A stretch of DNA of 64,000 nucleotides from a virus: IMG/VR virus record IMGVR_UViG_3300033148_003591, positions 37,996 through 101,995 of that record; one strand, 5' to 3'. The stretch's first letter is position 1. Each line of letters opens with the position of its first letter. The notes beneath the pieces were generated by a model that was not told the DNA's origin, did not search any database, and saw only the letters and a program-made list of their open reading frames with translations. The translations under genes were made by a program, and so were the position numbers. Below, one piece after another: positions 3,885 to 55,451 of this stretch.

Positions 3885-4652
3885 ATGAAAAGTAAGATAT
3901 GTACAAAATGTGGTAATGAAAAATTGTTGGATGAGTTTTCTCTCGATAAACGACGCCCAAATGGAAAAGGTTCTTGGTGTAAAGAATGCTGTAATATTCC
4001 GTCTAAAAAATATCGCCAAAAACATAAAAAAGAACGTAAAGAATATTATTTAGTACATAAAGAAGAAAATAAAGAAAAAGAAGCAACACGTCAGAAAAAA
4101 TGGTATAATGAACACAAAGAAGAAATAAAAATTAAAGGCAAAAAATATAGAAATAAGCATAAAGATGAAATGAAAAAACAAAAGAAAAAATATCGTGAAG
4201 ACCATAAAGAACAAATCGCTATTAAAGTTAAAAAATATCAACAGGAACATAAAGAAGAATTACGCAAACTGCGAAATAAACATTTAAAGAAAAGACGCAA
4301 AACAGACCTGCGGTTTAAAATAATAAGTAATTTAAGAGGATGTGTTAGACAAACAATCAAAGACAGCACAAAAACTCTGTCCACAATGTTTCTAATAGGT
4401 TGTGAAATTGACTACTTATTGTTTCATTTACAAAGTCAGTTTAAAGAAGGAATGTCGTGGGATAATTATGGGCGTGGTGATAATGGTCTAAAAGAATGGC
4501 ACATAGACCATCGTAGACCATGCGCCAGTTTTGATTTAAGCAAACCAGCAGAACAACAGAAATGCTTTAACTACAAAAATTTACAACCTCTTTGGGCAAA
4601 AGATAATTTATCCAAAGGTGCTAAGTGGAATATTAAGGATTCTGAGAATTAA
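3885..4652 (+). CDS. HNH homing endonuclease (Zn-finger N-terminus, endonuclease VII-like C-terminus)
   Basis: KICTKC...WCKEC, long basic helix, 'WHIDHRRPC...NYKNLQPLWAKDNLSK'; paralog of 23308. Confidence 0.8.
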   Translation: MKSKICTKCGNEKLLDEFSLDKRRPNGKGSWCKECCNIPSKKYRQKHKKERKEYYLVHKEENKEKEATRQKKWYNEHKEEIKIKGKKYRNKHKDEMKKQKKKYREDHKEQIAIKVKKYQQEHKEELRKLRNKHLKKRRKTDLRFKIISNLRGCVRQTIKDSTKTLSTMFLIGCEIDYLLFHLQSQFKEGMSWDNYGRGDNGLKEWHIDHRRPCASFDLSKPAEQQKCFNYKNLQPLWAKDNLSKGAKWNIKDSEN

Positions 4653-5355
4653 GTTTTGTTCTTATGTAACTTCTCAATTTTTCTTGATTATAATTATATC
4701 CCTCAATTTTTCTAAGAAAAGATATAACACTTATTTTTTCAAATACATTAATTTGGCTGCTAGCAGATACATTATAGATTTTCAATGACTTTTCTGTAGT
4801 ATACGGCAAAAAAAGTTTATTCAAATCTGTATTTACATAGTAATCACGGTATCCACTTCCACGATGCATTGTGCTATAATAATGTGTATTACCTGTTTTA
4901 TTTGCATCAAACCCCAATAAATAAATACTTCCACTAAAATCTAACAAATAGCACGCCAAACTTAATGCTAAATGACCAGTGAGTGCATGGCAGTAGAAGC
5001 CTTTTACGAGACTTTTATCACGAAACCATGTGTGACTGTGTGCCTTTATAAAAACCGTGTTTAAAAGTTGGTTTTCTAGCGATTGTGTGGTATTTAAAGC
5101 GATAATAAGGGGTAATTTTGATAGATTTTCACGGTGAACCGGATTAAACTTGTTCCAGAGCTGAACCGTTGGGTCAAAATCAACCTTACCTTGATAAAAT
5201 TCACCATCTGCACACACTAATGCTGTTGGTGTAATATCTTTATATGAGTGATTACAAGCTAATGTGAATTTAGTAGATAGTGTTTGCCAGATATTTTGTG
5301 GGAACTTAGATAGACTATTTCCGCCACCGATGATTATAAGCTGTTTGGGGTTCAT
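4633..5355 (-). CDS. Maf/DUF115 (MptE-like) family protein, putative glycosyltransferase
   Basis: 'IIIGGGNSL', 'LACN', 'IYLLGFD', 'THYY', 'KIYNVS' pattern. Confidence 0.6.
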   Translation of the reverse strand: MNPKQLIIIGGGNSLSKFPQNIWQTLSTKFTLACNHSYKDITPTALVCADGEFYQGKVDFDPTVQLWNKFNPVHRENLSKLPLIIALNTTQSLENQLLNTVFIKAHSHTWFRDKSLVKGFYCHALTGHLALSLACYLLDFSGSIYLLGFDANKTGNTHYYSTMHRGSGYRDYYVNTDLNKLFLPYTTEKSLKIYNVSASSQINVFEKISVISFLRKIEGYNYNQEKLRSYIRTKLNSQNP

Positions 5356-5948
5356 AATAATTTACCCCATTGAGTAGCCATAGCTTTAGCTATTCCAGGA
5401 AAAGTTTTACTTCTATTTATCTGTCTGTTTTTTCCACCTTTATTAAACCAATTTCCAGCAAGTTTGGTTGATTCAATTTTTTCAACTATATTGGTGGGTT
5501 TTAATAGCGGAAGATTTTTTAACCATAAACAAGTTCTTTTTGAATATGGATGACCATGTTCAAAGGGTTGTATTATTTGAGTATATTTTGGTAAACCGAA
5601 TATTCTACTTGGTATTGGATTTTCGATACAAATTTTTTTGATATTTGCATTTAATAATTTTATAAAAAATTTAACAGATTTATCACCAAATCGTTTTCTT
5701 TTTAAATTTAATTTTCCTTTTGGATAAAGATGTCTTGCACCTGCGTTACTAATGTATGTACACGGAGGATGTGCTATCATCATATCCCACCCTTTATCTA
5801 GTTGTTCTAAAACATTTCCTAAAATATGCCATTCAGGATGTCCTCCTGAACAAGGAAGTATATCACAAGAGTATGCTTCTATTCCTAATTTCCGCATTTC
5901 TATTGTTACTACTTGGGATTCTTCACATGCTATTAAAATTCTGCTCAT
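5352..5948 (-). CDS. Phage DNA cytosine methyltransferase-like protein
   Basis: 'ILIACEES', 'AHPPCTY' (catalytic PC), 'IENP', 'RSKTFPGIAKAMATQWG'. Confidence 0.7.
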   Translation of the reverse strand: MSRILIACEESQVVTIEMRKLGIEAYSCDILPCSGGHPEWHILGNVLEQLDKGWDMMIAHPPCTYISNAGARHLYPKGKLNLKRKRFGDKSVKFFIKLLNANIKKICIENPIPSRIFGLPKYTQIIQPFEHGHPYSKRTCLWLKNLPLLKPTNIVEKIESTKLAGNWFNKGGKNRQINRSKTFPGIAKAMATQWGKLL

Positions 5949-9096: not shown

Positions 9097-9312
9097 CTAG
9101 ATATCATTTTCTTCGTCTAGTTCAATCATTTTAGTTGCGCATGTTTCATTAATACTGAAATCGTCTTGAAATTCGTCACCTTTGAATATCTCCACAATAT
9201 AGGCTTCATCTGATACATCATATCGAACATTCATTACAATTCCGCTTTCAATAGGAAATGCTCTATTTAAAATAATTTCTAATTTTCTACCTGTGGTCAT
9301 TTTATTCTCCAA
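9097..9312 (-). CDS. Small hypothetical protein
   Basis: ORF; paralog of 8532-8711. Confidence 0.55.
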   Translation of the reverse strand: MENKMTTGRKLEIILNRAFPIESGIVMNVRYDVSDEAYIVEIFKGDEFQDDFSINETCATKMIELDEENDI

Positions 9313-10138
9313 TCCTTTCTAAAAAATGGCAAGTGTTACATGGATATGATTTTTTACCATTTTTACTAACCGATTTTCTAAATTTATTAGCCTTTTTATT
9401 ATTAAAAATACTGAATATAGTTTCATTTTTATCTGTTAATTCACCCAAAATAAATTGTTCATGTTCTTTCCAATCACTTCTTAAATTACAGCACGGCATA
9501 ACAGAGCCATTATAGTCAATGTAAATACCATTAGTGGGTATAAAACATGGTGCAATTCTGTGTGGGGGTTTATTTAATGCTTTTAATATTCCTCCTCTAT
9601 TTGAACCAACATTTTTAAAATTTCTATAATATATTAATATTTCCATATCATTAAAATTAGTATCTTTTTGAATAAGTTCACTATTTATTTTATGACTATT
9701 AGGCTTCAATTTTAGTTCGGCAAGCTTATCACCAATCATGTCTAATACTTTTTCTTGTTTATCAGTATATATTTGAATATTTAAACTCCTTAATCCGTTG
9801 TCGTATAATTTAGAAATTTTATTTGCTGTTAAAAAATCGCCATTAGTATTAAAGTGTAATGTTGCATTTGGAAGATTTATTTTTGCATAATTTAATCTAT
9901 TATAAATTATATCATCTGCTAAAGGTTCATTATACCTAGAATATGTTATTATTTTATTATAGTTTATTTCTTTTAAATTAGCGATTATTTTATTATATGT
10001 ACAAGTATTCATAAATATATTTTTAGAATTTCTATCAATTATTGAATTAGGACAATGCCAGCACTGTCTATTACAATAAGAAAATGTTTCTATTTCTATT
10101 AAGTTTACAAGTTTTTTAAATCGTTTCATATTATTCAT
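9302..10138 (-). CDS. Radical SAM protein with SPASM/twitch domain
   Basis: CNRQCWHC, 'YNEPL', 'TNG', C-terminal 'PC...YIDYNGSVMPCC...PCNTC'. Confidence 0.85.
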   Translation of the reverse strand: MNNMKRFKKLVNLIEIETFSYCNRQCWHCPNSIIDRNSKNIFMNTCTYNKIIANLKEINYNKIITYSRYNEPLADDIIYNRLNYAKINLPNATLHFNTNGDFLTANKISKLYDNGLRSLNIQIYTDKQEKVLDMIGDKLAELKLKPNSHKINSELIQKDTNFNDMEILIYYRNFKNVGSNRGGILKALNKPPHRIAPCFIPTNGIYIDYNGSVMPCCNLRSDWKEHEQFILGELTDKNETIFSIFNNKKANKFRKSVSKNGKKSYPCNTCHFLERIGE

Positions 10139-13100
10139 GATTTCTCCAGTTTTTCCCGTATAACTGTTCAAGATACCCTATAACTGGCATTGGTACTGAT
10201 AGATTGCATCCATATAAACTTCTTGGTTTAGTATTTTTTGTCCATTTTAAAATATGAACTTTTATGCCATTTTTTGCATATGTATTTTTTTCTTCATCAT
10301 GTATAAACATTTTTTGCCTTAATAGGTTACTATTAATCTCTGGTGCTGATATAAAAATATCTGTTGTTGTACTTGATAATTTTGATTTTTTAATAGCTTC
10401 AAGGCATGTTCTTTGAAGTAAACAACAATCAGGAACTATATTTATAAAATCTAAAAATACACTTTGTATATTATCACTTACTTTAGGTACAATATTTGTT
10501 GTCTTTTTTTCTACTTCAATTATATCGGCAACTGGATAATTAACCAATTCGTATGGAGTTTGGTATCTAATATGTTTAACACGTTCTAATGTGCTACTAC
10601 CTCTTGAAGTCATTTTCATTTCGCACTCCATATAAAATTTATTTTTTAAATAATGCAAGAATTTTTCAACCAAATGCATATCGGGTTTTCTTGGATGATG
10701 AATATATTTTTTAAGTTTTCTTATACTATTCGCTTTTTTATTTATACCTTTAAAATTATAGAAACACTTACCTACAGTTATTACAGGTTTTCCCCACATC
10801 ATTGCTTGCAACCCAATACCAGAATTTATTGTTAAAACTATATCCGAATATTTAATGCAGTCTTTATAATGATATTTATCTACGATTTTAACATTTTTAC
10901 TTTCAGTCATTAATGTTGTTTCCACCGGATGATTCTTAACTAGAAATTCTACATTTCTCATACTGCATCCTAATTCCTTTATAATGTTTTGAAAATTAGG
11001 CATAGATTTTACCCAATCACTCCATAATAATATAGTTGTATCATTATATACCTGTGACGCAACGAAAACTTTAATTGTATCTTTAGATAAATCTAATTCT
11101 TCATAGAAGGTTTTTTTAGTAACAAATTCAGCATGCTGTTTTTCTAAGCTACATTCATCCTCAGTGAAAGATTTAATATATTCTTTAATTTGTTTCTTTT
11201 CATAGGCTGTTATTTTAACATCCCAATTTTTCTTTTTATATGAATCACTAAAGTATAAAAAGTTGTGCATATCTAAATAAATGCTTCCAGGTAATGCTCC
11301 ACGTTCAAGTACATAAGCTAATTTTCCAGCTTCTTTAAATTCATGCAACAAATCGTATTTCCATTGAAACTTCTTTGCTATTGTATAACTATATGTATTC
11401 CAAAGAATTAATGCTTTATTAGATTTTTTAACTCTTTCTATATTTCTGTCTAATTCAATGTCTAAATATTTGCTTAATTCTACAACATAAGGGTGTCTAA
11501 CTTCAGGACTGATAAATTGTATTTTTTTGATTTGACTAATTTTATCTTGTACTATTTTAAATTTAGGATTATTTTGGTCTGTAAAGAAATTTTTTTCTTT
11601 ATTAGAACATTCTTCAGTAAATAAAGACCCAAATGCTCCTAATAAGGCATACAGGTTTAATTCCGTTGGGTTTTTTTGTAGAATCTTCCATAATTTTACA
11701 GGAACTTTGGTATATTTATCTTTATTATTTTTAGTTCTATCCATCATATTATAATATCTTTGAAATATTGTGTAGTTTGACCAATAAGGACAATGGTCTC
11801 CCATAACCCTTCTGTCGTTTATTGTAGTAAAACCGTCATTTAGCAGTGCGATTTTTTGAGTATTTTCGCAGCATAAAGTATCTTCAAAAGGATACTTTTT
11901 TAATATTTCCGTTCTATTAATTCTAACGCCTTTAATTTTTCTATTCATATGTACATCATACAGGGAAAATAATAATGTAGAAACAGTTGGTTCATTTTTT
12001 AACATACTTGTGTGCATATTATTAACAGCTTCAGGTTTTAAAATGATATCTTCATCACATTGGATAAAGTATGGTGTTTTACACCTAATCATCATTTGAT
12101 TAAATGCGTCTGACATGGGTGCAATATCTTCTATTATGTCTAGTTTAAAATCAACGGTTTGGTTTTTTAAAGCCAATAGACATGCTTGATAATTTTTTTT
12201 CTTTTCAACAGCAATTACAAATACAGTTACATCTGAAGAAATATCTTGTTTTCCCTTATCCCATGCCCGCACTACATTTTTTGTTCTATAATGAATATCT
12301 CTATTCGTCATTCCTTTTTTTGATAAATCTATATCAGTATAAAATTTCGTGCCAGGAAAAGGTTCAAATTTATACCACCCTTGTACAGATAATTTATTTT
12401 TTTTAATAAAATCCAAAGTCATTTGTCTTTCTTCTTCTGTTTCTCCTGGTATATGATGCATAAAAGATGCTCGAACTGGTAACTTAATTGAACGTGCTAT
12501 GTCTATAGTATTTTGATTGTCGGCTACTGTGTTACCTTTGTTTAATATTTTTAGCACCCTATCACTTCCACTTTCAGCACCAAATCTAACTTCGTAATAA
12601 CCCATCTCTTTCATTTTTATAGCCGTTTCTAATGTAAACACACCGGCTCTAACAAAACTTCTTATCTTTAACCTTTTATGCCATCCTCTTGCCATCCACA
12701 TTTCATGAATTTTATTAAAGCGTGGTTTGTTTACGATAAATAAATCATCATAAATGTACAATGTTTTAATTTGAGGATATTTTTTAATTAAGAAATCAAC
12801 TTCTTTTATAAAATATTCAGCACTATGGAATCTTGTATTACCCCAAAAAACTTGTGAGCTACAAAAATTACAAGAAAATGGACACCCTCTTGAAGTGAAA
12901 ATAGGAATAACATCTGTACACCGACCTCGTTCTGGATAATTTAATGTATCAATATTTTCAATGTTTGGTAATTGAATAATTTTTTCGCTTGGGTTATTTT
13001 TTATAATATGATTTAAAGCTTGTTCACCCTCACCTTTTATTATATGTTTAAATGGGTATTTTTCTAAATCTTCCCAAAGCGTACATTGTCCACCAATAAT

Positions 13101-13319
13101 GATAGGAATGTTTTTAATTGATTTTAGAATTTGAATAGCTTCTTGAATACCCCAAGCATTAGAAGATAATCCTATATAGTCACAGTTTTTTAATTCCTTT
13201 GGGTTTCTAATTAATTCAATATCAGCATTACAATTGGTTTTTAGATAACCTATGCTCAATGGATATTCATTGTCAACAGGGTCTTCCCACCCACACTGAT
13301 ACATTTTAATTTTTTTCAT
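10131..13319 (-). CDS. Multidomain fusion: B12-binding radical SAM + GT2 + KpsS/KpsC-like (GT107) beta-Kdo transferase + LicD-like domain
   Basis: 'SRGCPFSCNFC', 'GAESGS'; 'YFIQCDED'; 'ERG', 'QVYND', 'KNHP', 'TINSGIG..A...GKPV'; C-terminal 'PMP..YLEQLYGKNW'. Confidence 0.75.
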   Translation of the reverse strand: MKKIKMYQCGWEDPVDNEYPLSIGYLKTNCNADIELIRNPKELKNCDYIGLSSNAWGIQEAIQILKSIKNIPIIIGGQCTLWEDLEKYPFKHIIKGEGEQALNHIIKNNPSEKIIQLPNIENIDTLNYPERGRCTDVIPIFTSRGCPFSCNFCSSQVFWGNTRFHSAEYFIKEVDFLIKKYPQIKTLYIYDDLFIVNKPRFNKIHEMWMARGWHKRLKIRSFVRAGVFTLETAIKMKEMGYYEVRFGAESGSDRVLKILNKGNTVADNQNTIDIARSIKLPVRASFMHHIPGETEEERQMTLDFIKKNKLSVQGWYKFEPFPGTKFYTDIDLSKKGMTNRDIHYRTKNVVRAWDKGKQDISSDVTVFVIAVEKKKNYQACLLALKNQTVDFKLDIIEDIAPMSDAFNQMMIRCKTPYFIQCDEDIILKPEAVNNMHTSMLKNEPTVSTLLFSLYDVHMNRKIKGVRINRTEILKKYPFEDTLCCENTQKIALLNDGFTTINDRRVMGDHCPYWSNYTIFQRYYNMMDRTKNNKDKYTKVPVKLWKILQKNPTELNLYALLGAFGSLFTEECSNKEKNFFTDQNNPKFKIVQDKISQIKKIQFISPEVRHPYVVELSKYLDIELDRNIERVKKSNKALILWNTYSYTIAKKFQWKYDLLHEFKEAGKLAYVLERGALPGSIYLDMHNFLYFSDSYKKKNWDVKITAYEKKQIKEYIKSFTEDECSLEKQHAEFVTKKTFYEELDLSKDTIKVFVASQVYNDTTILLWSDWVKSMPNFQNIIKELGCSMRNVEFLVKNHPVETTLMTESKNVKIVDKYHYKDCIKYSDIVLTINSGIGLQAMMWGKPVITVGKCFYNFKGINKKANSIRKLKKYIHHPRKPDMHLVEKFLHYLKNKFYMECEMKMTSRGSSTLERVKHIRYQTPYELVNYPVADIIEVEKKTTNIVPKVSDNIQSVFLDFINIVPDCCLLQRTCLEAIKKSKLSSTTTDIFISAPEINSNLLRQKMFIHDEEKNTYAKNGIKVHILKWTKNTKPRSLYGCNLSVPMPVIGYLEQLYGKNWRNHE

Positions 13320-14122
13320 TACATCCCTTCCATTATTTTTAAAGTTTGTTTAACTACGTTTTCCGCTTCTGAGAAATTAAGAGAATTACTACCGTCACAT
13401 AAAGCTTTTTTTGGTGTTGGGTGAATTTCCATAAATATACCATTAACTCCATATGCTACTGAAGCTCTTGCTAAAGGTAAAATAAATTCTTTATTACCTA
13501 ATGATTTATTTCCACCAGCACTCGGTAACTGAACAGAATGAGTGCAATCAAATACTACAGGGTAATATTGTTTCATTATTGTAAACCCTGTAAAATCTAC
13601 TACTAATCTATGATACCCAAAAGAAGTTCCACGTTCTGTAAGTATAATATTAGTATTATTTTGGCTTTCAATTTTTTTAATTACATGTACTATATCATCT
13701 GGAGCTATAAATTGCCCCTTTTTAATATTAATTATTCTGCCTGTCTTTGCTAACCCTCCAACTAAATCTGTTTGTCTGCATAAGAATGCGGGTATTTGCA
13801 GAATATCTAAAGGTGATTTTTCTACCTCTTTTATTTCTGCTACAGAATGAACATCTGTTAATATTGGCAAATCGTATAAAATTTTTACTTGAGTTAAAAG
13901 TTCTATACCTCTTTTAATGCCCAAACCTCTATAAGCATCGTAAGAGGTTCTATTAGCTTTATCATAACTAGCTTTAAAAATAAACTGACACCCATATTTC
14001 ATTTTTAATTTTTTGACAAATCTTGCAGTTTCAAATAAAATCTTGTAATTTTCTATAGCACAATTTCCTACAATAAAAAATAATTTTGATTTTTTTATTT
14101 TGTCATACAATTTATTTTTCAT
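13319..14122 (-). CDS. kdsA: 3-deoxy-D-manno-octulosonate 8-phosphate (KDO8P) synthase
   Basis: 'FKASYDKANRTS', 'QIPAFLCRQTDL', 'KKGQF', 'ERG.SFGY', 'DCTHSVQ', 'EIHP..ALCDG'. Confidence 0.95.
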   Translation of the reverse strand: MKNKLYDKIKKSKLFFIVGNCAIENYKILFETARFVKKLKMKYGCQFIFKASYDKANRTSYDAYRGLGIKRGIELLTQVKILYDLPILTDVHSVAEIKEVEKSPLDILQIPAFLCRQTDLVGGLAKTGRIINIKKGQFIAPDDIVHVIKKIESQNNTNIILTERGTSFGYHRLVVDFTGFTIMKQYYPVVFDCTHSVQLPSAGGNKSLGNKEFILPLARASVAYGVNGIFMEIHPTPKKALCDGSNSLNFSEAENVVKQTLKIMEGM

Positions 14123-14517
14123 AGGTTTAATAATCCTTTATCTTTTAACTCTGGTATAGGTATTTCTGCACCATCAATAATTAACCCACCCTGAATCTGT
14201 CTAATTATATCATCTGGATTTATATCAGTGTCAATTGTATAAGCTATTTCAATTAGCACAGAATTTTCTAAAGCTTTAAATTTATGCACTAATGGTGGAT
14301 GAACTTCAAAAGTTTCATTTATGCCTAATACTTTAGTACCAAGTTCACTTATAATTTCCACTTTACCAGAAACCAATATAAACTTGTTTATTTTTTCTTT
14401 GTGATGATGCACAGAGCAAAAACTATCTCTCTTTAACTGCAATAAATCTATTTCGTTGTGATTATCAAGATGAATTCTTTGTTTAATACCCCAAATTTTA
14501 AAACTATTATTTGACAT
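14119..14517 (-). CDS. Cupin-domain protein (sugar-phosphate isomerase-like)
   Basis: 'KIWG', 'CSVHHHKEK...FILVSG', 'VHPPLVHKF...VLIEI'. Confidence 0.7.
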   Translation of the reverse strand: MSNNSFKIWGIKQRIHLDNHNEIDLLQLKRDSFCSVHHHKEKINKFILVSGKVEIISELGTKVLGINETFEVHPPLVHKFKALENSVLIEIAYTIDTDINPDDIIRQIQGGLIIDGAEIPIPELKDKGLLNL

Positions 14518-14882
14518 TATTTTAGCTCCTTTAATTCTTTAGCTACAAGTTTACTTATTTTCTTTTTTCTTACTAATTTTTTAATTAACCGATGCTGTTT
14601 CCTTGCATCTTTTTCAGGATTGATTTTAAGAACCTCATCTAATGCATTACGATTAACTAATAATTTTTTCATCAATGTTGCATGAATAAAACCTCTATCA
14701 ATAACATCTCTTCTGAATTGCTTTTTGGCAAGTCTATTTTTACAATATCCTTTTTCAACTATTTTAATTAGCTGATATAATTTTTTAATTTGTTCAAGAA
14801 TCTGAATTTTTTTAATATCAGCAGCCTTTTGCATTTGTTTCATTTTATAATTTCTAATTATATTTTTAATCCATTTTAACAT
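14517..14882 (-). CDS. Hypothetical basic protein
   Basis: ORF coupled to the cupin gene. Confidence 0.5.
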   Translation of the reverse strand: MLKWIKNIIRNYKMKQMQKAADIKKIQILEQIKKLYQLIKIVEKGYCKNRLAKKQFRRDVIDRGFIHATLMKKLLVNRNALDEVLKINPEKDARKQHRLIKKLVRKKKISKLVAKELKELK

Positions 14883-14895
14883 AATCTATCCTTTC

Positions 14896-15495
14896 TTATT
14901 TGAATTCTATTACGTTATCACCGAAATCTAAAAAATCTCCTTTGTGATGTGTTATGAGAATTGTTTGCATATCGAATTTTTTAACTATAGATTTTAAGCA
15001 TTCTCCTGTTTGTTTAATATCACCTGCACCAATTTGACTGAATGGTTCATCCAATTTTAAAATAATACCTCCTTCCGGTTTGACAAAACCCAACACAACC
15101 ATTCTTAATATCAAAGCAATTAAATCCTTTTGTCCACCAGCATTAGAGTCTTCAGGCTCGTGTGGTTCGGACATATCTGGTGTTTTAATGTACACCTTTG
15201 CTTCTGGAATAGCTCCTCTACGGTCAAATTCTAACTCTAAATGATGACCATCGCCAAATACTGACTGCAATGCATTGGTGCTGACTAACTCAAATCCTTC
15301 TTTCATTTTTTGCTGCAATGCCTTTTGAGCAATATCCAATACTTCAATACATTTTTGAAATAATTCTTTATTGGCTTTATTGGTGTCCACTTTTGTTTCA
15401 AGTTCATTGATTTTGAGTGTTAATGATTTATGAACACCATCTAAACTATAGACTTCTTTTTCTAAATTTTGATAGGTTTCTAATAAATTATTCAT
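14896..15495 (-). CDS. SbcC/Rad50-like ATPase, C-terminal half
   Basis: Short coiled coil, signature-like 'NAGGQ', Walker B 'LKLDEPF', H-loop 'ITHH'; no Walker A. Confidence 0.8.
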   Translation of the reverse strand: MNNLLETYQNLEKEVYSLDGVHKSLTLKINELETKVDTNKANKELFQKCIEVLDIAQKALQQKMKEGFELVSTNALQSVFGDGHHLELEFDRRGAIPEAKVYIKTPDMSEPHEPEDSNAGGQKDLIALILRMVVLGFVKPEGGIILKLDEPFSQIGAGDIKQTGECLKSIVKKFDMQTILITHHKGDFLDFGDNVIEFK

Positions 15496-15622
15496 TATTT
15501 TACTCCTTGATGATACCATATAGAAAAATCTTTCAAAGGAATTTCTATTATAATCTTTACAACTTTTAAACGGTTAGATTTGTCATAAATATATATGTAT
15601 TTATTTTTCCCTTTTTTATTCA

Positions 15623-15841
15623 TTATTCTTCCTCTTCATTTGATGGTAAAACATCAGGCAATATAAATGCTTTAATAATCTCAACTAACCCTAAACATTT
15701 TATAGAGTCACCATTGAATGTATGAACCATTTCAGCTTCTCCATCATTCAATATTTTCTCTCCTATTATAACAATACTATCTGTTCTGTTTACTAATTCT
15801 TCTATTAAATCATCCATAGGCACTAAACTTAATTCACTCAT
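15623..15841 (-). CDS. Hypothetical acidic protein
   Basis: ORF in the operon. Confidence 0.55.
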   Translation of the reverse strand: MSELSLVPMDDLIEELVNRTDSIVIIGEKILNDGEAEMVHTFNGDSIKCLGLVEIIKAFILPDVLPSNEEEE

Positions 15842-16068
15842 TTTATTCCTAACTTTTTTTTGCCATCAGCAAGTAATTTACTATATTCTTCTTCAGAATT
15901 TTCTAACACAACTTCTGCTTCATCTATAGCTATTCCCATTTCTGTAATAGTTTTTACCTCTTCATCTCTTTCTTTTTTTTGATTTGCAATTCTTTCTTCT
16001 AATTTAACTATTTCCATTTTGTTATCATTATTAACTTTTTCTAATTGTTCAAGCTCTTTATCTGCCAT
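15838..16068 (-). CDS. Small coiled-coil protein
   Basis: SD GGAGG; heptad-rich sequence. Confidence 0.55.
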   Translation of the reverse strand: MADKELEQLEKVNNDNKMEIVKLEERIANQKKERDEEVKTITEMGIAIDEAEVVLENSEEEYSKLLADGKKKLGIK

Positions 16069-16069
16069 T

Positions 16070-16375
16070 TTATTTTCCTCCAAATTTAATTTTATCTTCT
16101 AAAATTATTGTTAATCTGTTTGTTCCTCCTATCCATTCACATGGATTGCCAGAAAAATATTTACCTTTTATTTTAAATTTAAATTCTGATAATTTATTTC
16201 CAAATAATTTTAGAATGAATTTTAAATCAACATCTACTATAATAATTTTGGTTTTTTTAATTGAAGTTATAAAATGTTCAATTTCTGGATATGGATAAGT
16301 AGCAGCGTCAAAAATATTTGATATTATTAAACTTTCGAGTGTGCCAATTGGTTTGTTTCTATAATATACTTTCAT
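16070..16375 (-). CDS. Hypothetical protein
   Basis: SD AAGGAG. Confidence 0.5.
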   Translation of the reverse strand: MKVYYRNKPIGTLESLIISNIFDAATYPYPEIEHFITSIKKTKIIIVDVDLKFILKLFGNKLSEFKFKIKGKYFSGNPCEWIGGTNRLTIILEDKIKFGGK

Positions 16376-17320
16376 TTATTCTCCTTTTTCGCATAACCCA
16401 ATTCGTTCTCTCAAATTTTTCACAACAGGTTCTTCAGTTTTTGACGACTCACACACTCCCATAACCACATCTATCACCTTCATTGTTTGAATTTTAATAT
16501 TTTTTAATCCGGCTGTAAACATTTCCATTTTCTTTTTATTCTCTTTTTGAATAGATAATGCTTTTAAATCAAATATATCTTCTACCTTTTTAGCTGATTT
16601 TAATGGTATAATATCAATATCATATAATTTATTTTTTTTAATAGTTATTATGGCAATAGAAGGTATTCTATTTATATCATATTCATCAGCTTTACATCTT
16701 GCTATTGCTCCAGGGGCAATAAAAACAGGGTCTTGTTCTTTTTTAATACCCCAATACTTATGATTGTGTGAAACTAGCACTATATCGTAATTAGTTTTTA
16801 TATTTTCATAATAAACGCTAGTAGTAAACCACACTTTTACATCCACTATCATTGCATGGGGAACGTATATAGTTAATTTATCTTTTTTATCATGCTGTGG
16901 AAATTCTTTATTTAAATCATCTTCAATTCCTACATAATACTCTTGTCCTTTAATATAAATATTTTCATCTTCATATTCACCAAGTTGTTTAATATATTTA
17001 CTTCTTCTAAACATATGAGCTAATGATGTTGCATTTGATAGTGACCAATTATTAAACGCTTCATCATGATTACCAGGAGCTATAAGAATATTTATTTTAT
17101 ATTTTTCAATTAAATCAATAAACCAATCACTTAAAACATTACTCACTAAATAACCGTCATATACATCTGCTCCACAAATGATTAATTTTACTTTTTCTTT
17201 TTTAGCAATATCGAGTGATTCTACTATTTTAGCTTTAATGGCTTCACAATAGTTATCTGTGCGATTGCGTGGATTAACACCTTTAAGGTGCATATCTGTG
17301 ATGTAGAGTATCTTAGACAT
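16376..17320 (-). CDS. SbcD/Mre11-like metallophosphoesterase nuclease
   Basis: 'TDMH', 'GADVYD', 'PGNHD', 'HAM', 'SHNH', 'PGAIAR'. Confidence 0.85.
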   Translation of the reverse strand: MSKILYITDMHLKGVNPRNRTDNYCEAIKAKIVESLDIAKKEKVKLIICGADVYDGYLVSNVLSDWFIDLIEKYKINILIAPGNHDEAFNNWSLSNATSLAHMFRRSKYIKQLGEYEDENIYIKGQEYYVGIEDDLNKEFPQHDKKDKLTIYVPHAMIVDVKVWFTTSVYYENIKTNYDIVLVSHNHKYWGIKKEQDPVFIAPGAIARCKADEYDINRIPSIAIITIKKNKLYDIDIIPLKSAKKVEDIFDLKALSIQKENKKKMEMFTAGLKNIKIQTMKVIDVVMGVCESSKTEEPVVKNLRERIGLCEKGE

Positions 17321-17465
17321 AAATAATTCCTATTTTATTAATCTTCTACTTCAACAAAAAATACTTCCGGTTCAGGTAAGTTTAATTCTTTAACTTTTAA
17401 AACATAATATCCAACAAATTGTATTGGTTCGCCTTTATAATCTTCTTTTCTAATCATTTTATATT

Positions 17466-37656: not shown

Positions 37657-38178
37657 TTATTTATTCTGTATTTTTACAAGAGCTGCATCAAACATTATTT
37701 CATACGCCTTTTTCAATACATCCAAATTATCACCATTAATATGTCCGGCAAGAACTTGAATAGATGTAGATGCTGTTATAGACGCTTGTTGTCGTTCAAT
37801 ACTATTTTGTGTATCATTTGGTACATATCCAGGCTTAGAACCCTGTTTTTTAGCGTATGGTGTGGCTATATCCTTAGTTTTCTTGGTGTCCGGCTTGGTA
37901 GCTACTGTTTGTTCCTTTGTTGGCTCTACGGGCTTACCATCCTTTATTTCTTTAATTGAAGTAATCTTTAATCCTTTTTTACCTTCAGCTTGAGTGTATT
38001 CAATTTCAACTTCTCCATCTGCATTGGTTTCAAATAATTTTTTCGCATAATTGTGTTGCTGTTCTGCTGTTAAATTACCATCGCCTTGAAATTTTCCCCA
38101 TACTACATCATCGTCTTTTGGAAGTTGAATACCAAAAAATGCTGAACCCATTTTAATTATTTTTACTGTTAATTTCAT
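37657..38178 (-). CDS. Hypothetical protein (possible OB-fold, replication region)
   Basis: Beta-rich N-terminal domain, linker, C-terminal helices. Confidence 0.45.
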   Translation of the reverse strand: MKLTVKIIKMGSAFFGIQLPKDDDVVWGKFQGDGNLTAEQQHNYAKKLFETNADGEVEIEYTQAEGKKGLKITSIKEIKDGKPVEPTKEQTVATKPDTKKTKDIATPYAKKQGSKPGYVPNDTQNSIERQQASITASTSIQVLAGHINGDNLDVLKKAYEIMFDAALVKIQNK

Positions 38179-51480: not shown

Positions 51481-51913
51481 GGAATTTCTCTAAATATTTC
51501 CATTTTTCTTCATCCGGTAAAATAACTATTTGTTGAAGATGATATTCCCAATTACCAGTATTAATTGTTGGATTTAATTCGTACATACAAAAACTACTAA
51601 CCATTGTCTGTCCAAATTTTTTAAGTTCTTCCATTTGCATTTCTGAAATATCATCCTTTAATTCATTTAAATTATTTCTTATTTTATTTGAGTCACACCA
51701 AATAGAACCATCTGTTATTTTCTGTTTTCCATCACCCCAAATAGCTTTAGCAAATTCATGTGTTGAAACACAAGCGAACCAAATTCCATCTTCTATTATT
51801 TTATTTATAGACCACATCTTCTCTGAAAAACACATATCATTCCAACCTTTTTGTGAGCATCCGTTTAAAATAGCTTTATCTATCATCTTTATTAATATCT
51901 CTGCTTTATTCAT
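51467..51913 (-). CDS. Hypothetical phage protein, paralog of 19494-19769
   Basis: 'HEFAKAIWG', 'WEYHLQQIV...KYLEKFL'. Confidence 0.6.
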   Translation of the reverse strand: MNKAEILIKMIDKAILNGCSQKGWNDMCFSEKMWSINKIIEDGIWFACVSTHEFAKAIWGDGKQKITDGSIWCDSNKIRNNLNELKDDISEMQMEELKKFGQTMVSSFCMYELNPTINTGNWEYHLQQIVILPDEEKWKYLEKFLDKT

Positions 51914-53102
51914 TATCTTCTCCAATCTTTAAATGAGGAATTATAAATAGGCATAATGATGTACAAATACTTGCAATTATCACATTTGTATTATACCCAA
52001 AATTATCATAAATTATCCCACCAATTGCACTTCCTATTTTACTGGCTAAATTATTAGCTGAAGTAACTAACGCATAAAATAGAGCCTCACTTCCTGTTGG
52101 TAATATTTTCACCATAAAACTCATTACCGCTAAAAACGAAATCCCTTCAAATGCACCGAACAATAAACTATAATAAATAAGAAACCATTTATTAGGAATA
52201 TATAAATAAAATAAATTAGTTATCGCTCCAAAAATTATTGTAAAATATAACATCTTTTTCAATGGAAAATTATGTGCTTTCCAATAATACAATCCATACC
52301 CAACCAACCCAATCACAGTTCCAATAACTCCAACATAACCTAAAAATATTTTACCTATAAATAATTCTTCTCTGCATTTTATCATTAAAGCTGTACCAAA
52401 TCCAGGGCTAAATCTCAGTAAAACCAAAAATGCCAAACCAAGTAAAAAATCCTTGTTCTTCAAATACTTAAACACACTCCACGTAAATTTTTTAACCTCT
52501 TTAATTGGTTGTTCAAAATACTTTGTTTTAAGGTAAATTAAAGCACTTATTGGTATTATTAAGCAGATAGCATAGGCTACCTTATAATTTAGCGGTGTGG
52601 GCAGTGTAGAGGCTAAATATGCACCTAATAGTGATACTACAAGACTGCAAATAGCTAGTGCACTCCACTGCACGGACTGGATTTTGCCCTTTAAATTATG
52701 CTTCCGTTCAAGTATACACATCTGTTTATCATTGGCTACATCTGCCAAAGCAATGCCTATATTAATTAATAATCCGGTAATAATAAGACTGATTAAATTT
52801 AACCCAAAAATAACAATATAAATTATACAAGCTATAATTAGCCAATAAGCAATATACAAATAGTATTTAGATAAATACCCCTTTATGGGTCTATAATCAT
52901 TAAGGTAGCCCCATATAACTTTTGTATACCACGCTAAACCAGTTATTAATCCAATCACCCCTAATGTGGTCGCAGAAAGACCCCATGATTCTCTAAGAAG
53001 GTAATATAAGCATTGGTCTGGTAATCCAGATAATCCTTGATTAGAATAACATATCACAAAAAATAAAAATGTCCAAAATGGAATTTTGTATTCCTTTTTC
53101 AT
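51906..53102 (-). CDS. MFS transporter, BT1/folate-biopterin (FBT) family
   Basis: About 12 TM; 'W.TK..WG.L.D..PI.GY', 'ALADVAND', 'IQS..W', 'P.GSEA..YAL..S..N'. Confidence 0.8.
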   Translation of the reverse strand: MKKEYKIPFWTFLFFVICYSNQGLSGLPDQCLYYLLRESWGLSATTLGVIGLITGLAWYTKVIWGYLNDYRPIKGYLSKYYLYIAYWLIIACIIYIVIFGLNLISLIITGLLINIGIALADVANDKQMCILERKHNLKGKIQSVQWSALAICSLVVSLLGAYLASTLPTPLNYKVAYAICLIIPISALIYLKTKYFEQPIKEVKKFTWSVFKYLKNKDFLLGLAFLVLLRFSPGFGTALMIKCREELFIGKIFLGYVGVIGTVIGLVGYGLYYWKAHNFPLKKMLYFTIIFGAITNLFYLYIPNKWFLIYYSLLFGAFEGISFLAVMSFMVKILPTGSEALFYALVTSANNLASKIGSAIGGIIYDNFGYNTNVIIASICTSLCLFIIPHLKIGEDNE

Positions 53103-53103: not shown

Positions 53104-53871
53104 TCATCTCCTACTCTTTCTTACCATTTGGCTAAATTCGTCAATTATAGTATTGGTATCATTCATAAAGCATTTAAAATCTAAATACTCATGATATACA
53201 GATTTACCTAAAGTTTTATCCAAAATATGATTTACCTGCATCATACATAAACTAAAATTGACTTTCTCGAATGGATGTCCTATAACAAATAAATGAATAT
53301 AATGACCTAATAAATTAATCAATGTACCCTGAAATGGTCTACAATACCACCACATATTACCATTTGCTCGGTCTTTAATAAGTGCTTTTATTTGTAACAT
53401 TAAATTACTCATTAAAATTAAATAATATTTAACATTCTCGTTAGCCGGTAGTTCTAATGATAAACCATTATGTGTATTTGATATCCGATGCCATGCAAAT
53501 CCATGTATTCCATTTATTGTTGGTCGAATAATATCTCCAAATTTTAATTTATATTTTTTCAATTCTTTATTATACCATTCTTTTTTTAAACATGGTCTCT
53601 GTAAATTAATATGAAACTCAGGCTCATCCCTTAATGCATTAATTACAGGTCTATTTAATACAGGTGTTTTTGTATAACCTTTATAACCTCGCTCAGTCAT
53701 AGCCCTATGTTGTGCTTTTAAAGAATCTCTAAACCATATATAATTAGCCGATTCACTAAGTGTATTATTAATATCTGTATTAAGATATTGTTCAAATAAT
53801 GCTCGTGCATCTAATATATTCATGACATAATTTTGATTAATTTTCTTTTGATAAAATTTAGTTATCTTCAT
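53104..53871 (-). CDS. Divergent Fic/Fido-domain protein
   Basis: 'YIHLFVIGHPFEKVNFSLCMMQVNHIL' resembles the Fic HPFxxGNGR helix-loop-helix. Confidence 0.55.
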   Translation of the reverse strand: MKITKFYQKKINQNYVMNILDARALFEQYLNTDINNTLSESANYIWFRDSLKAQHRAMTERGYKGYTKTPVLNRPVINALRDEPEFHINLQRPCLKKEWYNKELKKYKLKFGDIIRPTINGIHGFAWHRISNTHNGLSLELPANENVKYYLILMSNLMLQIKALIKDRANGNMWWYCRPFQGTLINLLGHYIHLFVIGHPFEKVNFSLCMMQVNHILDKTLGKSVYHEYLDFKCFMNDTNTIIDEFSQMVRKSRR

Positions 53872-55451
53872 TTTGCCTCATATCTTTTTATTTCATTTAA
53901 TAATATTTTATTAGTATCATCTATTATCTTTTTCTTAATATTTATTTTAATTTTATTAATTAATTCATGGCGAGCATTTCTGAAAAAATCAATTGGTTTA
54001 TTATCAAATCTAAAAATTAATTCACGAATTAAATTAATCTGTAATATATTATGTACAACATGTATATCATGCAATATATTATTACCATTATCATTTCTAC
54101 TCATTCTATTGGAGCGTGATTTTAATTTGGCTAAATACATTATTGACCCAACTTCATTTTCTAACGATTTAATTACATTTATAATAGATTGTATTTTTTT
54201 ATTTTTATATGAAACGTCATACAATAATGTCTCACTATTATATCCAATTATTAAATTTTCTTTTAAACATTTATTAAAAAATTGTGTTCCTTTTTGGATT
54301 TTAAGTTGATTTAATGGATAACTCATTGCATCATACAAATCTAAATCGTCTACAAAATTTATAGTTTCCATTACTTCTTCTGGTGTTACAAACGGGTCAA
54401 ACATAATTACACCTATAGAAATTTCTTTCCATATTTTTTTAATACGTTTAATAGCTTCATAATTTTCAATTGGTAATATACCTTTATTATATCGTTTTAA
54501 TTGTGTTTTAGAATTTGTTTCAATACCTAAAAATGGCAAATTAAATCCGGCTTTCTTCATAACATTTAAAACTGTTAAATTAAAATTGTTCTCATCATCA
54601 GACATATTTGATTTAAATACATCATCTGCTCTTAAAGAAAATGCAATATTTATATCATAAGTATTTTTGATAAGTTCATAGCATAATTTAATCATCCTGT
54701 TCTTGGCTATTTTTCCAATTGGTGTTGCTCCTCCTAATACACATGGGTCGGTAATTGATATATCTTTATATCCTAATTGTTTAGCATATTTTAATTCTTG
54801 TAAAAATATATCACTATTTAATAACTCGAATTTATGAAAACGATTTGGGTCTTTAAAACAATAACTACATGCACCCCATCCACATCCTCTTGATGTCCAT
54901 AATAAAATATCTCCTTTATAATCTATGGTTTTATTTAATGATTCCTTATTTACAGGAATAATATTAATCAAATTTGTTTTGACTGATTTATTCATTTGTA
55001 ATTTATTATCATAATAAACTATTCCACGTATTTCTGATATTTTAATTTGATTTTTAATATACTTTATGTAATCTATAATTGTATTTTCTCCTTCACCAAT
55101 AGCCATAATTAAATTATTGTATTTATTTAAAATATTTTCATAACTATTAGATATTAAATTTCCGCCAACAATAATTTTTCTATTTTTTAAATAATCTTTT
55201 AATAAGCGGTGATTTAAAAATTTAAACAATTCATTTTGCGATTCAAGTTGAGCCGAAATGCCTATAAAATCATAATTATTTTTGGATATATGTATTAATA
55301 AATCATCAAATTTTGTATACTGATTGTCAATCAAATCAATTCGGGCATCGGAATAAACAGAACGAATAGCACAGTCTATGCGATTCAATCCCAATGGATA
55401 ACTAAATTGTTGATGTCTTTTTGATGGAAAACTTATTAATAGAATTCTCAC
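53868..55451 (-). CDS. B12-binding radical SAM enzyme (class B methyltransferase-like)
   Basis: GTG start with SD; 'YPLGL', 'IGIS', 'IVGG', 'GEGE', 'SRGCGWGACSYC', 'GIET....LKRYNKG'. Confidence 0.85.
   Translation of the reverse strand: MRILLISFPSKRHQQFSYPLGLNRIDCAIRSVYSDARIDLIDNQYTKFDDLLIHISKNNYDFIGISAQLESQNELFKFLNHRLLKDYLKNRKIIVGGNLISNSYENILNKYNNLIMAIGEGENTIIDYIKYIKNQIKISEIRGIVYYDNKLQMNKSVKTNLINIIPVNKESLNKTIDYKGDILLWTSRGCGWGACSYCFKDPNRFHKFELLNSDIFLQELKYAKQLGYKDISITDPCVLGGATPIGKIAKNRMIKLCYELIKNTYDINIAFSLRADDVFKSNMSDDENNFNLTVLNVMKKAGFNLPFLGIETNSKTQLKRYNKGILPIENYEAIKRIKKIWKEISIGVIMFDPFVTPEEVMETINFVDDLDLYDAMSYPLNQLKIQKGTQFFNKCLKENLIIGYNSETLLYDVSYKNKKIQSIINVIKSLENEVGSIMYLAKLKSRSNRMSRNDNGNNILHDIHVVHNILQINLIRELIFRFDNKPIDFFRNARHELINKIKINIKKKIIDDTNKILLNEIKRYEAK

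Follow-up and report, generated by a model that had tools for sequence, protein, structure and literature searches.

Virus-encoded Kdo pathways have been described for CroV (crov265–267; PMC9614988) and for Synechococcus phage S-SCSM2R, which carries KdsA and KdsB (PMC12801897). Giant viruses glycosylate their virions with their own glycan genes, and CroV is a predicted Kdo maker (PMC9614988). Phage DNA glycosylation clusters combine a C5-methyltransferase, a TET-like 5mYOX enzyme and a glycosyltransferase (GT); one metagenomic phage enzyme, GT94, puts putative Kdo on 5hmC, for which an anti-restriction role was proposed (preprint 10.1101/2023.12.21.572611). Among cellular enzymes, the closest are KpsC and KpsS (CAZy GT107, PF05159), in which catalytic roles are assigned to the QXXXD and HP motifs and to a Glu (PMC10148158, PMC12887879). 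Here we analyse a 64,000-nucleotide window (IMG/VR record IMGVR_UViG_3300033148_003591, positions 37,996 to 101,995) of the complete, 101,995-bp DTR genome of an uncultured phage. An operon with KdsA and a four-domain enzyme that includes a capsule-type Kdo transferase indicate that this phage very probably makes a tailored acidic glycan of its own.

Gene island and Kdo supply

The genes for a cupin, KdsA and a 1,062-aa fusion protein are three minus-strand open reading frames, at the coordinates given in the initial annotation (Table 1). The cupin stop and kdsA start overlap by 4 nt (ATGA, 14119–14122), and the kdsA stop and fusion start share 1 nt at 13319 (TAATG); the translational coupling proposed initially can thus be read directly at both junctions. 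The cupin and the gene 5′ of it are also joined by TAATG, and the radical SAM/SPASM gene 3′ of the fusion overlaps or abuts the fusion stop, so the coupled unit exceeds three genes. The trio described initially is therefore present but as part of a longer operon, which runs on past the fusion through radical SAM/SPASM, GT2-like and MptE/WaaZ-like genes and reaches 4633. The second radical SAM (SPASM) enzyme and the MptE/WaaZ-like gene were absent from the earlier description. The island is transcribed together with genes for replication and recombination rather than with the structural genes, and it is convergent with the block of tape-measure and tail genes, in keeping with the earlier remark that it adjoins tail genes.

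Table 1. Features of the island (window coordinates)
Feature	Coordinates	Strand	Basis
Lysine-rich protein, 121 aa, first of coupled run	14517..14882	-	TAATG junction with cupin
Monocupin, 132 aa, P0003	14119..14517	-	Pfam MannoseP_isomer
KdsA, predicted metal-dependent 3-deoxy-8-phosphooctulonate (KDO8P) synthase, P0002	13319..14122	-	NCBIfam equivalogs and PDB 1fwn
Radical SAM domain, B12-binding (class B) type, P0001 residues 1–350	12270..13319	-	Pfam and NCBIfam
GT-A (GT2-like) glycosyltransferase domain, P0001 residues 357–600	11520..12251	-	Model and VIA
GT107-like retaining beta-Kdo transferase domain, P0001 residues 601–930	10530..11519	-	Pfam and fold
Small alpha/beta C-terminal domain, P0001 residues 946–1062	10134..10484	-	Modelled with confidence
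Radical SAM/SPASM enzyme, P0006, likely ATG at 10138	9302..10138	-	Pfam
110-aa protein, C-terminal hydrophobic segment	8715..9047	-	Kyte–Doolittle 19-residue maximum 2.02
153-aa protein, N-terminal hydrophobic segment	7933..8394	-	Kyte–Doolittle maximum 1.69 near residue 12
GT2-like glycosyltransferase, 259 aa	7172..7951	-	Homologs in related islands
MptE-like/DUF115 protein, 240 aa, P0173	4633..5355	-	Structural likeness

Three of these proteins are uncertain members: the lysine-rich protein, which has no Pfam or PHROG match, the 110-aa protein, which matched no family in profile searches including NCBIfam, and the 153-aa protein, with a weak match to DUF2201_N.

KdsA exceeds the cut-offs of two NCBIfam equivalogs (NF003543, 344.7 bits against 242; TIGR01362, 324.4 bits against 314), matches Pfam DAHP_synth_1 (1.6e-60), a search suggested earlier, and is far closer to the KDO8P synthase 1fwn (E 3.7e-75) than to DAHP synthases (~1e-24). 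Its ligand motifs, GNC (C21), THS (H195), EIH (E232) and CDG (D243), previously noted as intact, align to the Cys/His/Glu/Asp of the Aquifex enzyme 1fwn. Judged by its sequence, P0002 is a genuine metal-type KDO8P synthase, predicted to convert arabinose-5-phosphate and PEP to Kdo-8-phosphate. KdsB, KdsC and an SIS-type KdsD, reported initially as missing from the window, are absent from the whole 101,995-bp genome, so the host must activate Kdo, as had been supposed for KdsB and KdsC. Host enzymes would dephosphorylate and CMP-activate the sugar, which implies a presumably Gram-negative host.

At least 589 kdsA-like stretches occur in IMG/VR, and viral kdsA frequently lacks any GT107 gene nearby, as would be expected if KdsA and the cupin only raised host Kdo for LPS and the neighbouring transferases were unrelated. 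Such metabolic boosting is highly improbable here: kdsA is translationally coupled to an enzyme with a Kdo-transferase fold, and in other phages it is flanked by sialyltransferase-like GTs (19 of 80 viral loci) or KdsB (14 of 80), neighbours that point to dedicated transfer rather than bulk supply.

The cupin matches MannoseP_isomer (25.9 bits; cut-off 23.6) and is modelled with a pLDDT of 94.7. Its best fold match is the Thermococcus PMI 7zvy (Z 13.7, VIA), with which many other cupins tie, so that PMI-like isomerases and other small cupins are not separable by this search. Residues H37, H39, K42, N44, H78, E90, D103 and R106 are invariant among 13 homologs. The protein may act as a non-SIS arabinose-5-phosphate isomerase feeding KdsA, in line with the initial idea that it provides the pentose phosphate, or may tailor the ulosonic acid; it also accompanies GT107 genes that have no kdsA nearby.

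The transferase fusion and other island enzymes

The fusion protein P0001 comprises radical SAM, GT-A, GT107-like and small C-terminal domains; the initial annotation recognized the GT107-like domain and left out the radical SAM and GT-A domains. Residues 141–305 match Pfam Radical_SAM (1.5e-18) and carry CX3CX2C (C146/C150/C153), and the N terminus gives partial matches, far under the cut-offs, to B12-type radical SAM NCBIfam families (PhpK, HpnJ, BchE). This domain is fused only in P0001 and P0007 and does not occur at the N termini of P0008–P0013. The GT-A domain (pLDDT 94.5) resembles the GT2 enzymes 6p61, WrtF and SpsA (Z 17–18, VIA), and its D422-E-D424 and D455 are invariant in all 33 homologs.

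The GT107 assignment proposed earlier for residues 600–930 is borne out by both the profile and the structural comparisons that had been suggested. Capsule_synth covers residues 703–897 with 56.2 bits (cut-off 20; 4.9e-15). Residues 601–916 are modelled with a mean pLDDT of 94.5; the best Foldseek matches are to KpsC (6mgb, 5.4e-12), with Z of 19.9–20.2 across 258–282 residues (VIA). The motifs are QVYND (756–760), KNHP (795–798) and TINSGIGLQAMMWGKPV; E672, Q756, D760, K795 and P798 are conserved in 30 of 30 homologs and H797 in 28. In P0007 and P0008, the nearest relatives, Asn replaces this histidine, a substitution that counts against the assembly line proposed below. The C-terminal domain has no Pfam match and travels with the GT107 domain, recurring in P0007–P0013, P0029 and P0031–P0033 and at L089, L090, L091, L093 and L097.

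Beyond the fusion, P0006 carries CX3CX2C and matches SPASM (5.3e-11) and Radical_SAM (7.4e-08); a homolog with 59% identity lies directly 3′ of the GT fusion in L089, and remoter ones are encoded no more than 2 kb from kdsA at 12 of the 80 viral loci. Homologs of the 259-aa GT2-like protein occur in the islands of L003, L089, L090, L093 and L097, and that of L003 (39% identity) matches Pfam Glycos_transf_2. P0173 has neither a Pfam nor an NCBIfam match; in its Atlas model it is similar to the MptE-like and WaaZ_KDO_III clusters (TM ~0.69), and its homologs lie beside the GT107 gene in L002, L003, L089, L090, L092, L097 and L098. On this modelled likeness, P0173 is a candidate second ulosonic-acid transferase.

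The island in related phages

In related phage contigs of ~40–100 kb, the island keeps its place after SbcCD-like genes (L090, L097 and L098), and L089 has an equal run of GT fusion, SPASM, GT2 and MptE-like genes. The co-occurrence of kdsA with a GT107-like gene, the subject of an earlier suggestion, is found in L003 and in a 100,377-bp contig bearing P0008 and P0175. In L090 and L097, the 5–10 kb flanking the GT107 gene on each side contain the cupin gene but not kdsA, which is thus an optional member. The cupin gene lies immediately 5′ of the GT107 gene in L090, L094, L095 and L097, and 23 of the 80 viral kdsA loci include a cupin homolog, in 20 cases no further than 2 kb from kdsA; the cupin is a conserved partner of both viral kdsA and GT107-like genes. 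The kdsA and cupin pair recurs among other viral contigs, and podovirus-like and myovirus-like contigs share a cassette of kdsA, cupin, radical SAM-SPASM, short SDR and GT29-like GT genes, with or without KdsB and JmjC.

Because L090 and L097 have no kdsA near their GT107 genes, the donor might not be Kdo itself; a modified octulosonic acid could take its place. A methylated, oxidized or epimerized derivative, which the cupin and the radical SAM enzymes would generate whatever the acceptor, would also fit the recurrent cassette, the persistence of the cupin where kdsA is missing and the B12-type domain fused to transferases. We consider this a minor possibility, as radical SAM chemistry is not assignable from sequence and, with no phage KdsB in the genome, the derivative must suit the host CMP-Kdo synthetase or arise after transfer.

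Proposed function and acceptor

Tentatively, and at a little under even likelihood, we read the island as a cytoplasmic assembly line for a Kdo-containing acidic glycan with virion proteins as the likeliest acceptor. The enzymology itself is very likely. It rests on KdsA scores over equivalog cut-offs with intact ligands, a GT107 fold (Z ~20) with catalytic residues conserved in 28–30 of 30 homologs, tight gene coupling, an island conserved in relatives, and the co-occurrence of kdsA and GT107 genes in L003 and the 100,377-bp contig. The GT107-like domain would transfer Kdo from CMP-Kdo onto Asp760 of QXXXD and hand it with retention to a sugar acceptor, His797 of HP serving as the acid and Glu672 as the base. 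The GT-A domain, the 259-aa GT2-like protein and the MptE/WaaZ-like protein may add adjoining residues, and the fused B12-type radical SAM domain and the separate radical SAM/SPASM enzyme may modify a sugar, with C-methylation, oxidation and epimerization among the candidate reactions. Relatives vary in pyruvyl-, methyl- and sulfotransferases and APS kinase; these swapped enzymes are polysaccharide-type tailoring that adds negative charge, in support of an acidic product.

The virion itself, as acceptor, has a somewhat less than even chance; phage structural proteins might then bear an anionic glycan coat. Pointing this way are island transferases without clear transmembrane segments (19-residue hydropathy maxima 0.9–1.6), the lack of export or lipid-priming genes in the annotated parts, convergence on the tape-measure and tail block, an L022 kdsA cassette that abuts a tail sheath gene, and the precedent of giant viruses, whose own glycan genes serve virions (PMC9614988). 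Counting against it are transcription with replication and recombination genes and the small hydrophobic proteins within the island. KpsC/KpsS-type enzymes also use lipid-linked acceptors at the membrane, a further point against a virion acceptor.

Alternatively, the enzymes may add sugars to a lipid-linked glycoconjugate of the host (LPS core, a Kdo-lipid primer of the KpsS/KpsC type, capsule or EPS), leading to receptor masking, superinfection exclusion or a changed surface of the infected cell. The nearest solved relatives, KpsC and WbbB, make capsule primers and O-antigen caps; the BT1/MFS transporter and M50 membrane peptidase in the L090 island hint at the envelope, as do a BT1 homolog adjoining kdsA in L008 and the two small hydrophobic proteins here; and cyanophage kdsA/kdsB have been interpreted as cell-wall modification genes (PMC12801897). 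This appreciable alternative is nevertheless unlikely, given that neither a flippase nor an ABC exporter is seen in the annotated parts, nor a Wzy-type polymerase or a polyprenyl-phosphate priming transferase, that the transferases lack clear membrane segments, and that a 102-kb phage that looks lytic would profit little from slow surface change unless for exclusion.

DNA, also offered initially as an acceptor, is very unlikely. A glycan or single Kdo on phage bases could block restriction, and the Kdo-mass adduct made on 5hmC by a phage GT, the position of the island at the end of a DNA-metabolism block, its two radical SAM enzymes and P0172, a small viral C5-cytosine-methyltransferase-like protein encoded between island genes, fit this idea. 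However, the GT reported to put Kdo on DNA folds like T4 beta-GT rather than like GT107 enzymes (preprint 10.1101/2023.12.21.572611), and relatives combine several GTs with pyruvyl-, sulfo- and methyltransferases, a set typical of polysaccharides. Neither a Tet/JBP dioxygenase nor a thymidylate-synthase-like hydroxymethylase nor a canonical PF00145 C5-methyltransferase is encoded in the complete genome, which thus offers none of the known routes to 5hmC or 5hmU.

Comparison with known systems

The island resembles DNA glycosylation clusters in having phage GTs with LPS-type sugars, including putative Kdo, and adjoining DNA-metabolism genes; it differs in GT fold, in the polysaccharide-type tailoring of its relatives and in a genome without 5mYOX or hydroxymethylase. 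Like CroV, Fadolivirus and S-SCSM2R, it encodes a KDO8P synthase in the company of glycosyltransferase and sugar-tailoring genes. Those viruses also encode CMP-Kdo synthetase, and CroV an isomerase and a phosphatase, whereas this phage has only KdsA and relies on its host; the published accounts of virus Kdo pathways (PMC9614988, PMC12801897) include no GT107-type transferase and no radical SAM fusion. The IMG/VR cassette (L036, L022 and others), of which we found no published description, shares the cupin, KdsA and radical SAM-SPASM families and their tight linkage with the island, but has a sialyltransferase-like GT29 transferase instead of GT107, and frequently KdsB.

Compared with KpsC, the phage domain is only 16–18% identical and lies in a phage-encoded protein, fused to radical SAM, GT-A and novel C-terminal domains, with donor and acceptor predicted; a membrane-anchoring tail of the KpsC type is not seen, the KpsMT/KpsED export partners are lacking and the HP histidine is replaced in the two nearest relatives. 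As in KpsC/KpsS, the domain has a modified GT-B fold (Z ~20 to KpsC), exceeds the Pfam gathering cut-off, and has QXXXD with its invariant Asp, HP in the C-terminal Rossmann half and an invariant Glu in the N-terminal half. It is also similar to the N-terminal module of WbbB (GT99; Z ~16.5, VIA), and, like WbbB and KrkA (GT140), the phage protein fuses a Kdo module to other GT modules.

Genomic setting of the Kdo genes

The phage record has direct terminal repeats, is rated complete at 101,995 bp and has a GC content of ~28%. Between 64,000 and 4,633 nearly every gene is on the minus strand, in a block that includes genes for DNA polymerase, primase, a UvsX-like recombinase, ligase and exonuclease as well as T5 A1-like and SbcD/SbcC-like genes. 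The plus-strand block stops at ~4,650; it encodes a large tail protein and, immediately ahead of the window, the tape measure protein. The Kdo genes, described in the initial annotation as abutting the tail genes, indeed sit at the far end of the replication and recombination transcription block and converge on the tail genes. The three proposed minus-strand open reading frames, for a cupin, KdsA and a fusion protein, were recovered exactly, and the ATGA and TAATG junctions read in the sequence bear out their translational coupling. Coupling reaches one gene further upstream (TAATG) and one further downstream; there, the stop codon of the fusion gene overlaps or adjoins an ATG of a radical SAM/SPASM gene. 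We refer to these genes together with the glycan genes that follow them, down to position 4633, as the island. Elsewhere in the genome, a long open reading frame (L087) has no match by tblastn in 50,697 phage records and no PHROG family.

Positions of genes and gene sets in the window, the complete genome and related or kdsA-bearing viral loci
Feature	Record	Position	Strand	Description
Cupin (P0003)	Window	14119-14517	minus	
KdsA (P0002)	Window	13319-14122	minus	267 aa
Fusion protein (P0001)	Window	10131-13319	minus	1,062 aa
Two small proteins	Window			Hydrophobic segments; downstream of fusion, in island
GT2-like protein	Window			259 aa; downstream of fusion, in island
P0172	Window	5352-5948	minus	198 aa; small viral C5-cytosine-methyltransferase-like family, PHROG 757; between island genes
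P0173	Window			240 aa; end of minus-strand block; Atlas model resembles MptE-like/DUF115 and WaaZ_KDO_III clusters, TM about 0.69
BT1/MFS transporter	Window	51906-53102	minus	Pfam BT1, 7.6e-24
Unassigned protein	Window			255 aa; between transporter and B12-binding radical SAM protein
B12-binding radical SAM protein	Window	53868-55451	minus	
Open reading frame, L087	Genome (outside window)	14404-17427		1,007 aa
Sulfation genes	L002	945-3694		Three or four sulfotransferases and APS kinase beside GT107-like gene
Sulfation genes	L003	5912-12872		As for L002; also PHO4-type transporter
HNH endonuclease	L090	8206-9048		Between MptE-like gene and cupin
Transporter homolog	L090	15121-16320		Inside island; 38% identity
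Transporter homolog	L008	8522-9748		Directly upstream of kdsA; 53% identity
kdsA cassette	L036	6761-12158		Podovirus-like (T7-like) contig, beside ribonucleotide reductase; recurrent cassette plus KdsB and JmjC dioxygenase
kdsA cassette	L022	9947-13938		Myovirus-like contig, beside tail sheath; KdsA with ~220-aa extension of no recognised family

Synthesis and supply of Kdo

The reading of the second gene as a KDO8P synthase is upheld by two NCBIfam equivalogs (NF003543, 344.7 bits versus a cut-off of 242; TIGR01362, 324.4 versus 314). Among solved structures it is closest to the metal-dependent KDO8P synthase of Aquifex aeolicus (1fwn; E = 3.7e-75), and KDO8PS chains in the PDB match at E = 3.7e-75 to 1e-51, compared with ~1e-24 or worse for DAHP synthases. 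Each motif that the initial annotation quoted for KdsA or for the fusion protein was found; C21, H195, E232 and D243 of KdsA align with the metal ligands of 1fwn, and an alignment of 12 sequences shows no variation at these positions. By family criteria, the protein is a metal-class KDO8P synthase, predicted to convert A5P and PEP to Kdo-8-P. The closest bacterial homologs come from mixed phyla and are about 50–56% identical, and PHROGs holds no family for KdsA, the fusion protein or the SPASM enzyme. The noted absence of KdsB, KdsC and KdsD extends to the complete genome, in which we found no CTP_transf_3, KdsC-type phosphatase or SIS domain with models that matched all control genomes. Activation of Kdo would therefore depend on a Kdo-proficient, Gram-negative host.

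The cupin was detected as MannoseP_isomer (25.9 bits versus a cut-off of 23.6). Its model (pLDDT 94.7) has a Thermococcus phosphomannose isomerase as top VIA match (Z = 13.7); vicilins, CapF, PAC13, KdgF and others tie with this enzyme within 1 Z, and the fold search does not discriminate function. Because the cupin fold differs from the SIS fold, the protein can be at most a functional analogue of KdsD/GutQ/KpsF and not a member of that family. A SIS domain was found in 1 of 50 viral kdsA records, where it adjoins kdsA in a locus without a cupin (L010); this fits replacement of KdsD by the cupin, although a single locus is much too little to prove it. The recurrent cupin beside kdsA is a candidate non-SIS arabinose-5-phosphate isomerase.

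KdsA genes are common in viral contigs, with at least 589 stretches found. Among the best 80 loci of these, a cupin occurs in 23 (within 2 kb in 20), a GT29-like transferase in 19 (all within 2 kb), KdsB in 14 (13), an rSAM-SPASM protein in 12 (12) and a short SDR in 12 (10). A recurrent viral cassette combines kdsA with the cupin, a GT29-like sialyltransferase-like protein, rSAM-SPASM and a truncated SDR, and this cassette lies on podovirus-like as well as myovirus-like contigs (L036 and L022; see table).

A GT107-like module in a four-domain fusion

The capsule-synthesis domain postulated for the third protein was detected by Pfam (Capsule_synth, residues 703–897). It lies in a conserved ~700-aa unit (residues 357–1062) that stands alone in the homologs P0008–P0013. 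We modelled this unit with AlphaFold from a 55-sequence alignment (mean pLDDT 94.5). The postulated KpsC-type fold of residues 600–930 was recovered: KpsC beta-Kdo transferases are the top Foldseek matches (5.4e-12), followed by WbbB. VIA alignment to KpsC gave Z = 19.9–20.2 with 258–282 residues aligned at an r.m.s.d. of 3.1–3.6 (model residues 245–560, corresponding to 601–916 of the fusion), and to WbbB, Z of about 16.5. Residues 601–916 thus share the modified GT-B fold of KpsC, WbbB and KrkA (GT107/GT99/GT140).

Retaining Kdo transferases use a QXXXD motif, which supplies the nucleophilic Asp and a carboxylate-binding Gln, together with an HP motif, which binds CMP and whose His is reported as the general acid, and a general-base Glu (PMC10148158, PMC12887879). 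In the fusion, QXXXD is Q756-V-Y-N-D760, with Q and D kept in 30 of 30 homologs and profile-aligned to LQVEDD of WbbB. The HP motif is H797-P798; P798 and K795 are invariant in all 30 family members, and 28 of the 30 retain the His, with Asn in its place in P0007 and P0008, the two nearest relatives of the fusion. E672 (in ERG), which by sequence position is the candidate general base, is also invariant (30/30) and lies 88 residues before the Asp, versus 94 in KpsC-N. The domain is a GT107-like module whose predicted catalytic residues are intact, and fold model and sequence together predict a retaining beta-Kdo transferase. On numbering, the discussion in PMC10148158 gives the general acid of KpsC-N as 'His94'; the peptide printed there, the order in WbbB (HP after QXXXD) and the later GT140 paper place HP in the C-terminal half, after Asp160, and 'His94' may be a misprint.

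The remaining domains flank this module. The N terminus contains a Pfam Radical_SAM core (residues 141–305; 67.9 bits versus 29.5) with CX3CX2C at C146/C150/C153; among the homologs, radical SAM is joined to the glycosyltransferase unit only in this phage and in P0007 (71% identical). Its best partial NCBIfam matches are B12-dependent radical SAM families, all below cut-off, and the cobalamin-binding PF02310, carried by the more distant homologs P0017–P0020, is not reported by Pfam for the fusion itself. The GT-A domain resembles GT2 structures (VIA Z = 17–18, model residues 1–179) and has a DXD motif, D422-E-D424, kept in 33 of 33 sequences; PF00535 was detected only in the relative P0010. 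The C-terminal domain (~115 aa) is well modelled, accompanies the GT107 domain in many homologs and has no family match. We rejected a LicD-like identity for it: there is no Pfam LicD match, and the expected second-strand acidic residues are not conserved in the family alignment.

Counterparts of the island in other phages

Metagenome and IMG/VR scans yielded ten further distinct GT107-like loci (L096 and L099 repeat L003 and L002). When the fusion was compared by tblastn with 50,697 phage records, the only match was to a radical SAM sequence in Streptomyces phage SF3; a single-protein-query scan of viral contigs gave no match, and scanning GTDB genome contigs with the family alignment revealed no relative and identified no bacterial host or prophage copy. 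Three loci are syntenic with this phage (L090, on a 96.8-kb contig, L097 and L098), with the island after exonuclease, SbcD-like and SbcC-like genes. The closest fusion relatives lie on contigs of 94.9 kb (P0007), 100.4 kb (P0008), 71 kb (P0009) and 54 kb (P0010).

Recurrent island members are an MptE-like gene (7 loci), a GT2-like gene (5 loci) and a cupin directly upstream of the GT107 gene (L090, L094, L095 and L097); L089 has a SPASM enzyme, 59% identical, in the same position. P0173 has no HMM match, and its likeness to MptE/WaaZ proteins is a structural resemblance between models that we treat as a lead only. Members that vary include, in L090, a SAM methyltransferase, a polysaccharide pyruvyl transferase-nitroreductase fusion, a BT1/MFS transporter and an M50 peptidase. 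The gene sets of L002 and L003 amount to phage-encoded sulfated-glycan machinery. An inserted HNH endonuclease gene in L090 suggests homing-endonuclease traffic in the variable island region.

The expectation that kdsA and GT107 genes co-occur in related phages was borne out, but the pairing was seen in only three cases: the present genome, L003 (with the cupin next to kdsA) and a 100,377-bp contig. P0008 and a KdsA 71% identical to ours (P0175) are placed together on this last contig solely from the equal size of their contigs. A distant cassette in our phage comprises the B12-binding radical SAM protein, the unassigned protein and the transporter (see table). Because homologs of the transporter lie in the L090 island and beside kdsA in L008, this cassette may belong functionally to the Kdo-glycan system. 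By BLASTP, the 398-aa transporter has no similarity to the N-terminal radical SAM domain of the fusion.

The acceptor of the glycan

We tentatively favour the phage virion as acceptor, at rather less than an even chance. The transferases look soluble. The KpsS/KpsC capsule-primer system is marked by a lyso-phosphatidylglycerol acceptor, membrane anchoring and KpsMT/KpsED export partners; in the fusion, hydropathy reaches at most 1.26 and no tail of hydrophobic or amphipathic character was seen. No KpsMT/KpsED-type export genes were seen among the annotated neighbours of the island, and no priming genes in the annotated parts. In this phage and in others, the islands are found close to tail genes, and giant viruses provide a precedent (PMC9614988). 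The KpsC/WbbB ancestry of the transferase and the membrane proteins in or near some islands point instead to the host surface, as cyanophage kdsA/kdsB have been read (PMC12801897); we consider this acceptor somewhat less likely than the virion.

DNA is a still more doubtful acceptor, and we judge it improbable. The complete genome has no match at E ≤ 1 to Tet/JBP (PF12851) or thymidylate-synthase-like hydroxymethylases (PF00303) and no PF00145 methylase. Only one phage enzyme is reported to attach a sugar of Kdo mass to 5hmC, and its fold is T4 beta-GT-like (10.1101/2023.12.21.572611); the pyruvylation and sulfation encoded by relatives are polysaccharide chemistry. A new hypermodification class, in which a Kdo-containing, radical-SAM-tailored glycan is put on the phage's own DNA by a route other than 5hmC/5hmU, has a very slim chance of being correct. 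For example, P0172 and a radical SAM enzyme might create an attachment point on which the capsule-type Kdo transferase would build the glycan. P0172 retains PPC and ENP motifs. An FxGxG SAM loop could not be recognised in it, a target-recognition domain is lacking, and Pfam, NCBIfam and PDB sequences gave no match.

Comparison with known systems

Kdo is a sugar characteristic of Gram-negative envelopes, and to our knowledge retaining beta-Kdo transferases have otherwise been described only in the synthesis of bacterial capsules and O antigens. Virus-encoded Kdo synthesis is on record for CroV and Fadolivirus (PMC9614988) and for cyanophage S-SCSM2R (PMC12801897). New here are the GT107-like module, with its predicted catalytic residues intact, within a four-domain protein that also contains a radical SAM enzyme, the fixed position of the island in a lineage of ~40–100-kb phage contigs with variable, charge-adding tailoring genes, and the recurrent cupin partner; our literature search found no published description of the GT107-radical SAM fusion, the fixed island slot or the cupin partner. 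This phage lineage carries, beside a KDO8P synthase of its own, a predicted beta-Kdo transferase fused both to a radical SAM enzyme and to another glycosyltransferase, in a conserved genomic slot where pyruvyl, sulfate and methyl tailoring genes vary among relatives. As a single polypeptide, the fused enzyme is attractive for studies of Kdo transfer coupled to radical SAM tailoring. If the host surface is modified, the outcome would be a phage-directed, capsule-like change. If instead the product coats virions, it would represent a type of anionic phage glycan not described so far, and could bear on adsorption, aggregation and survival of marine phages.
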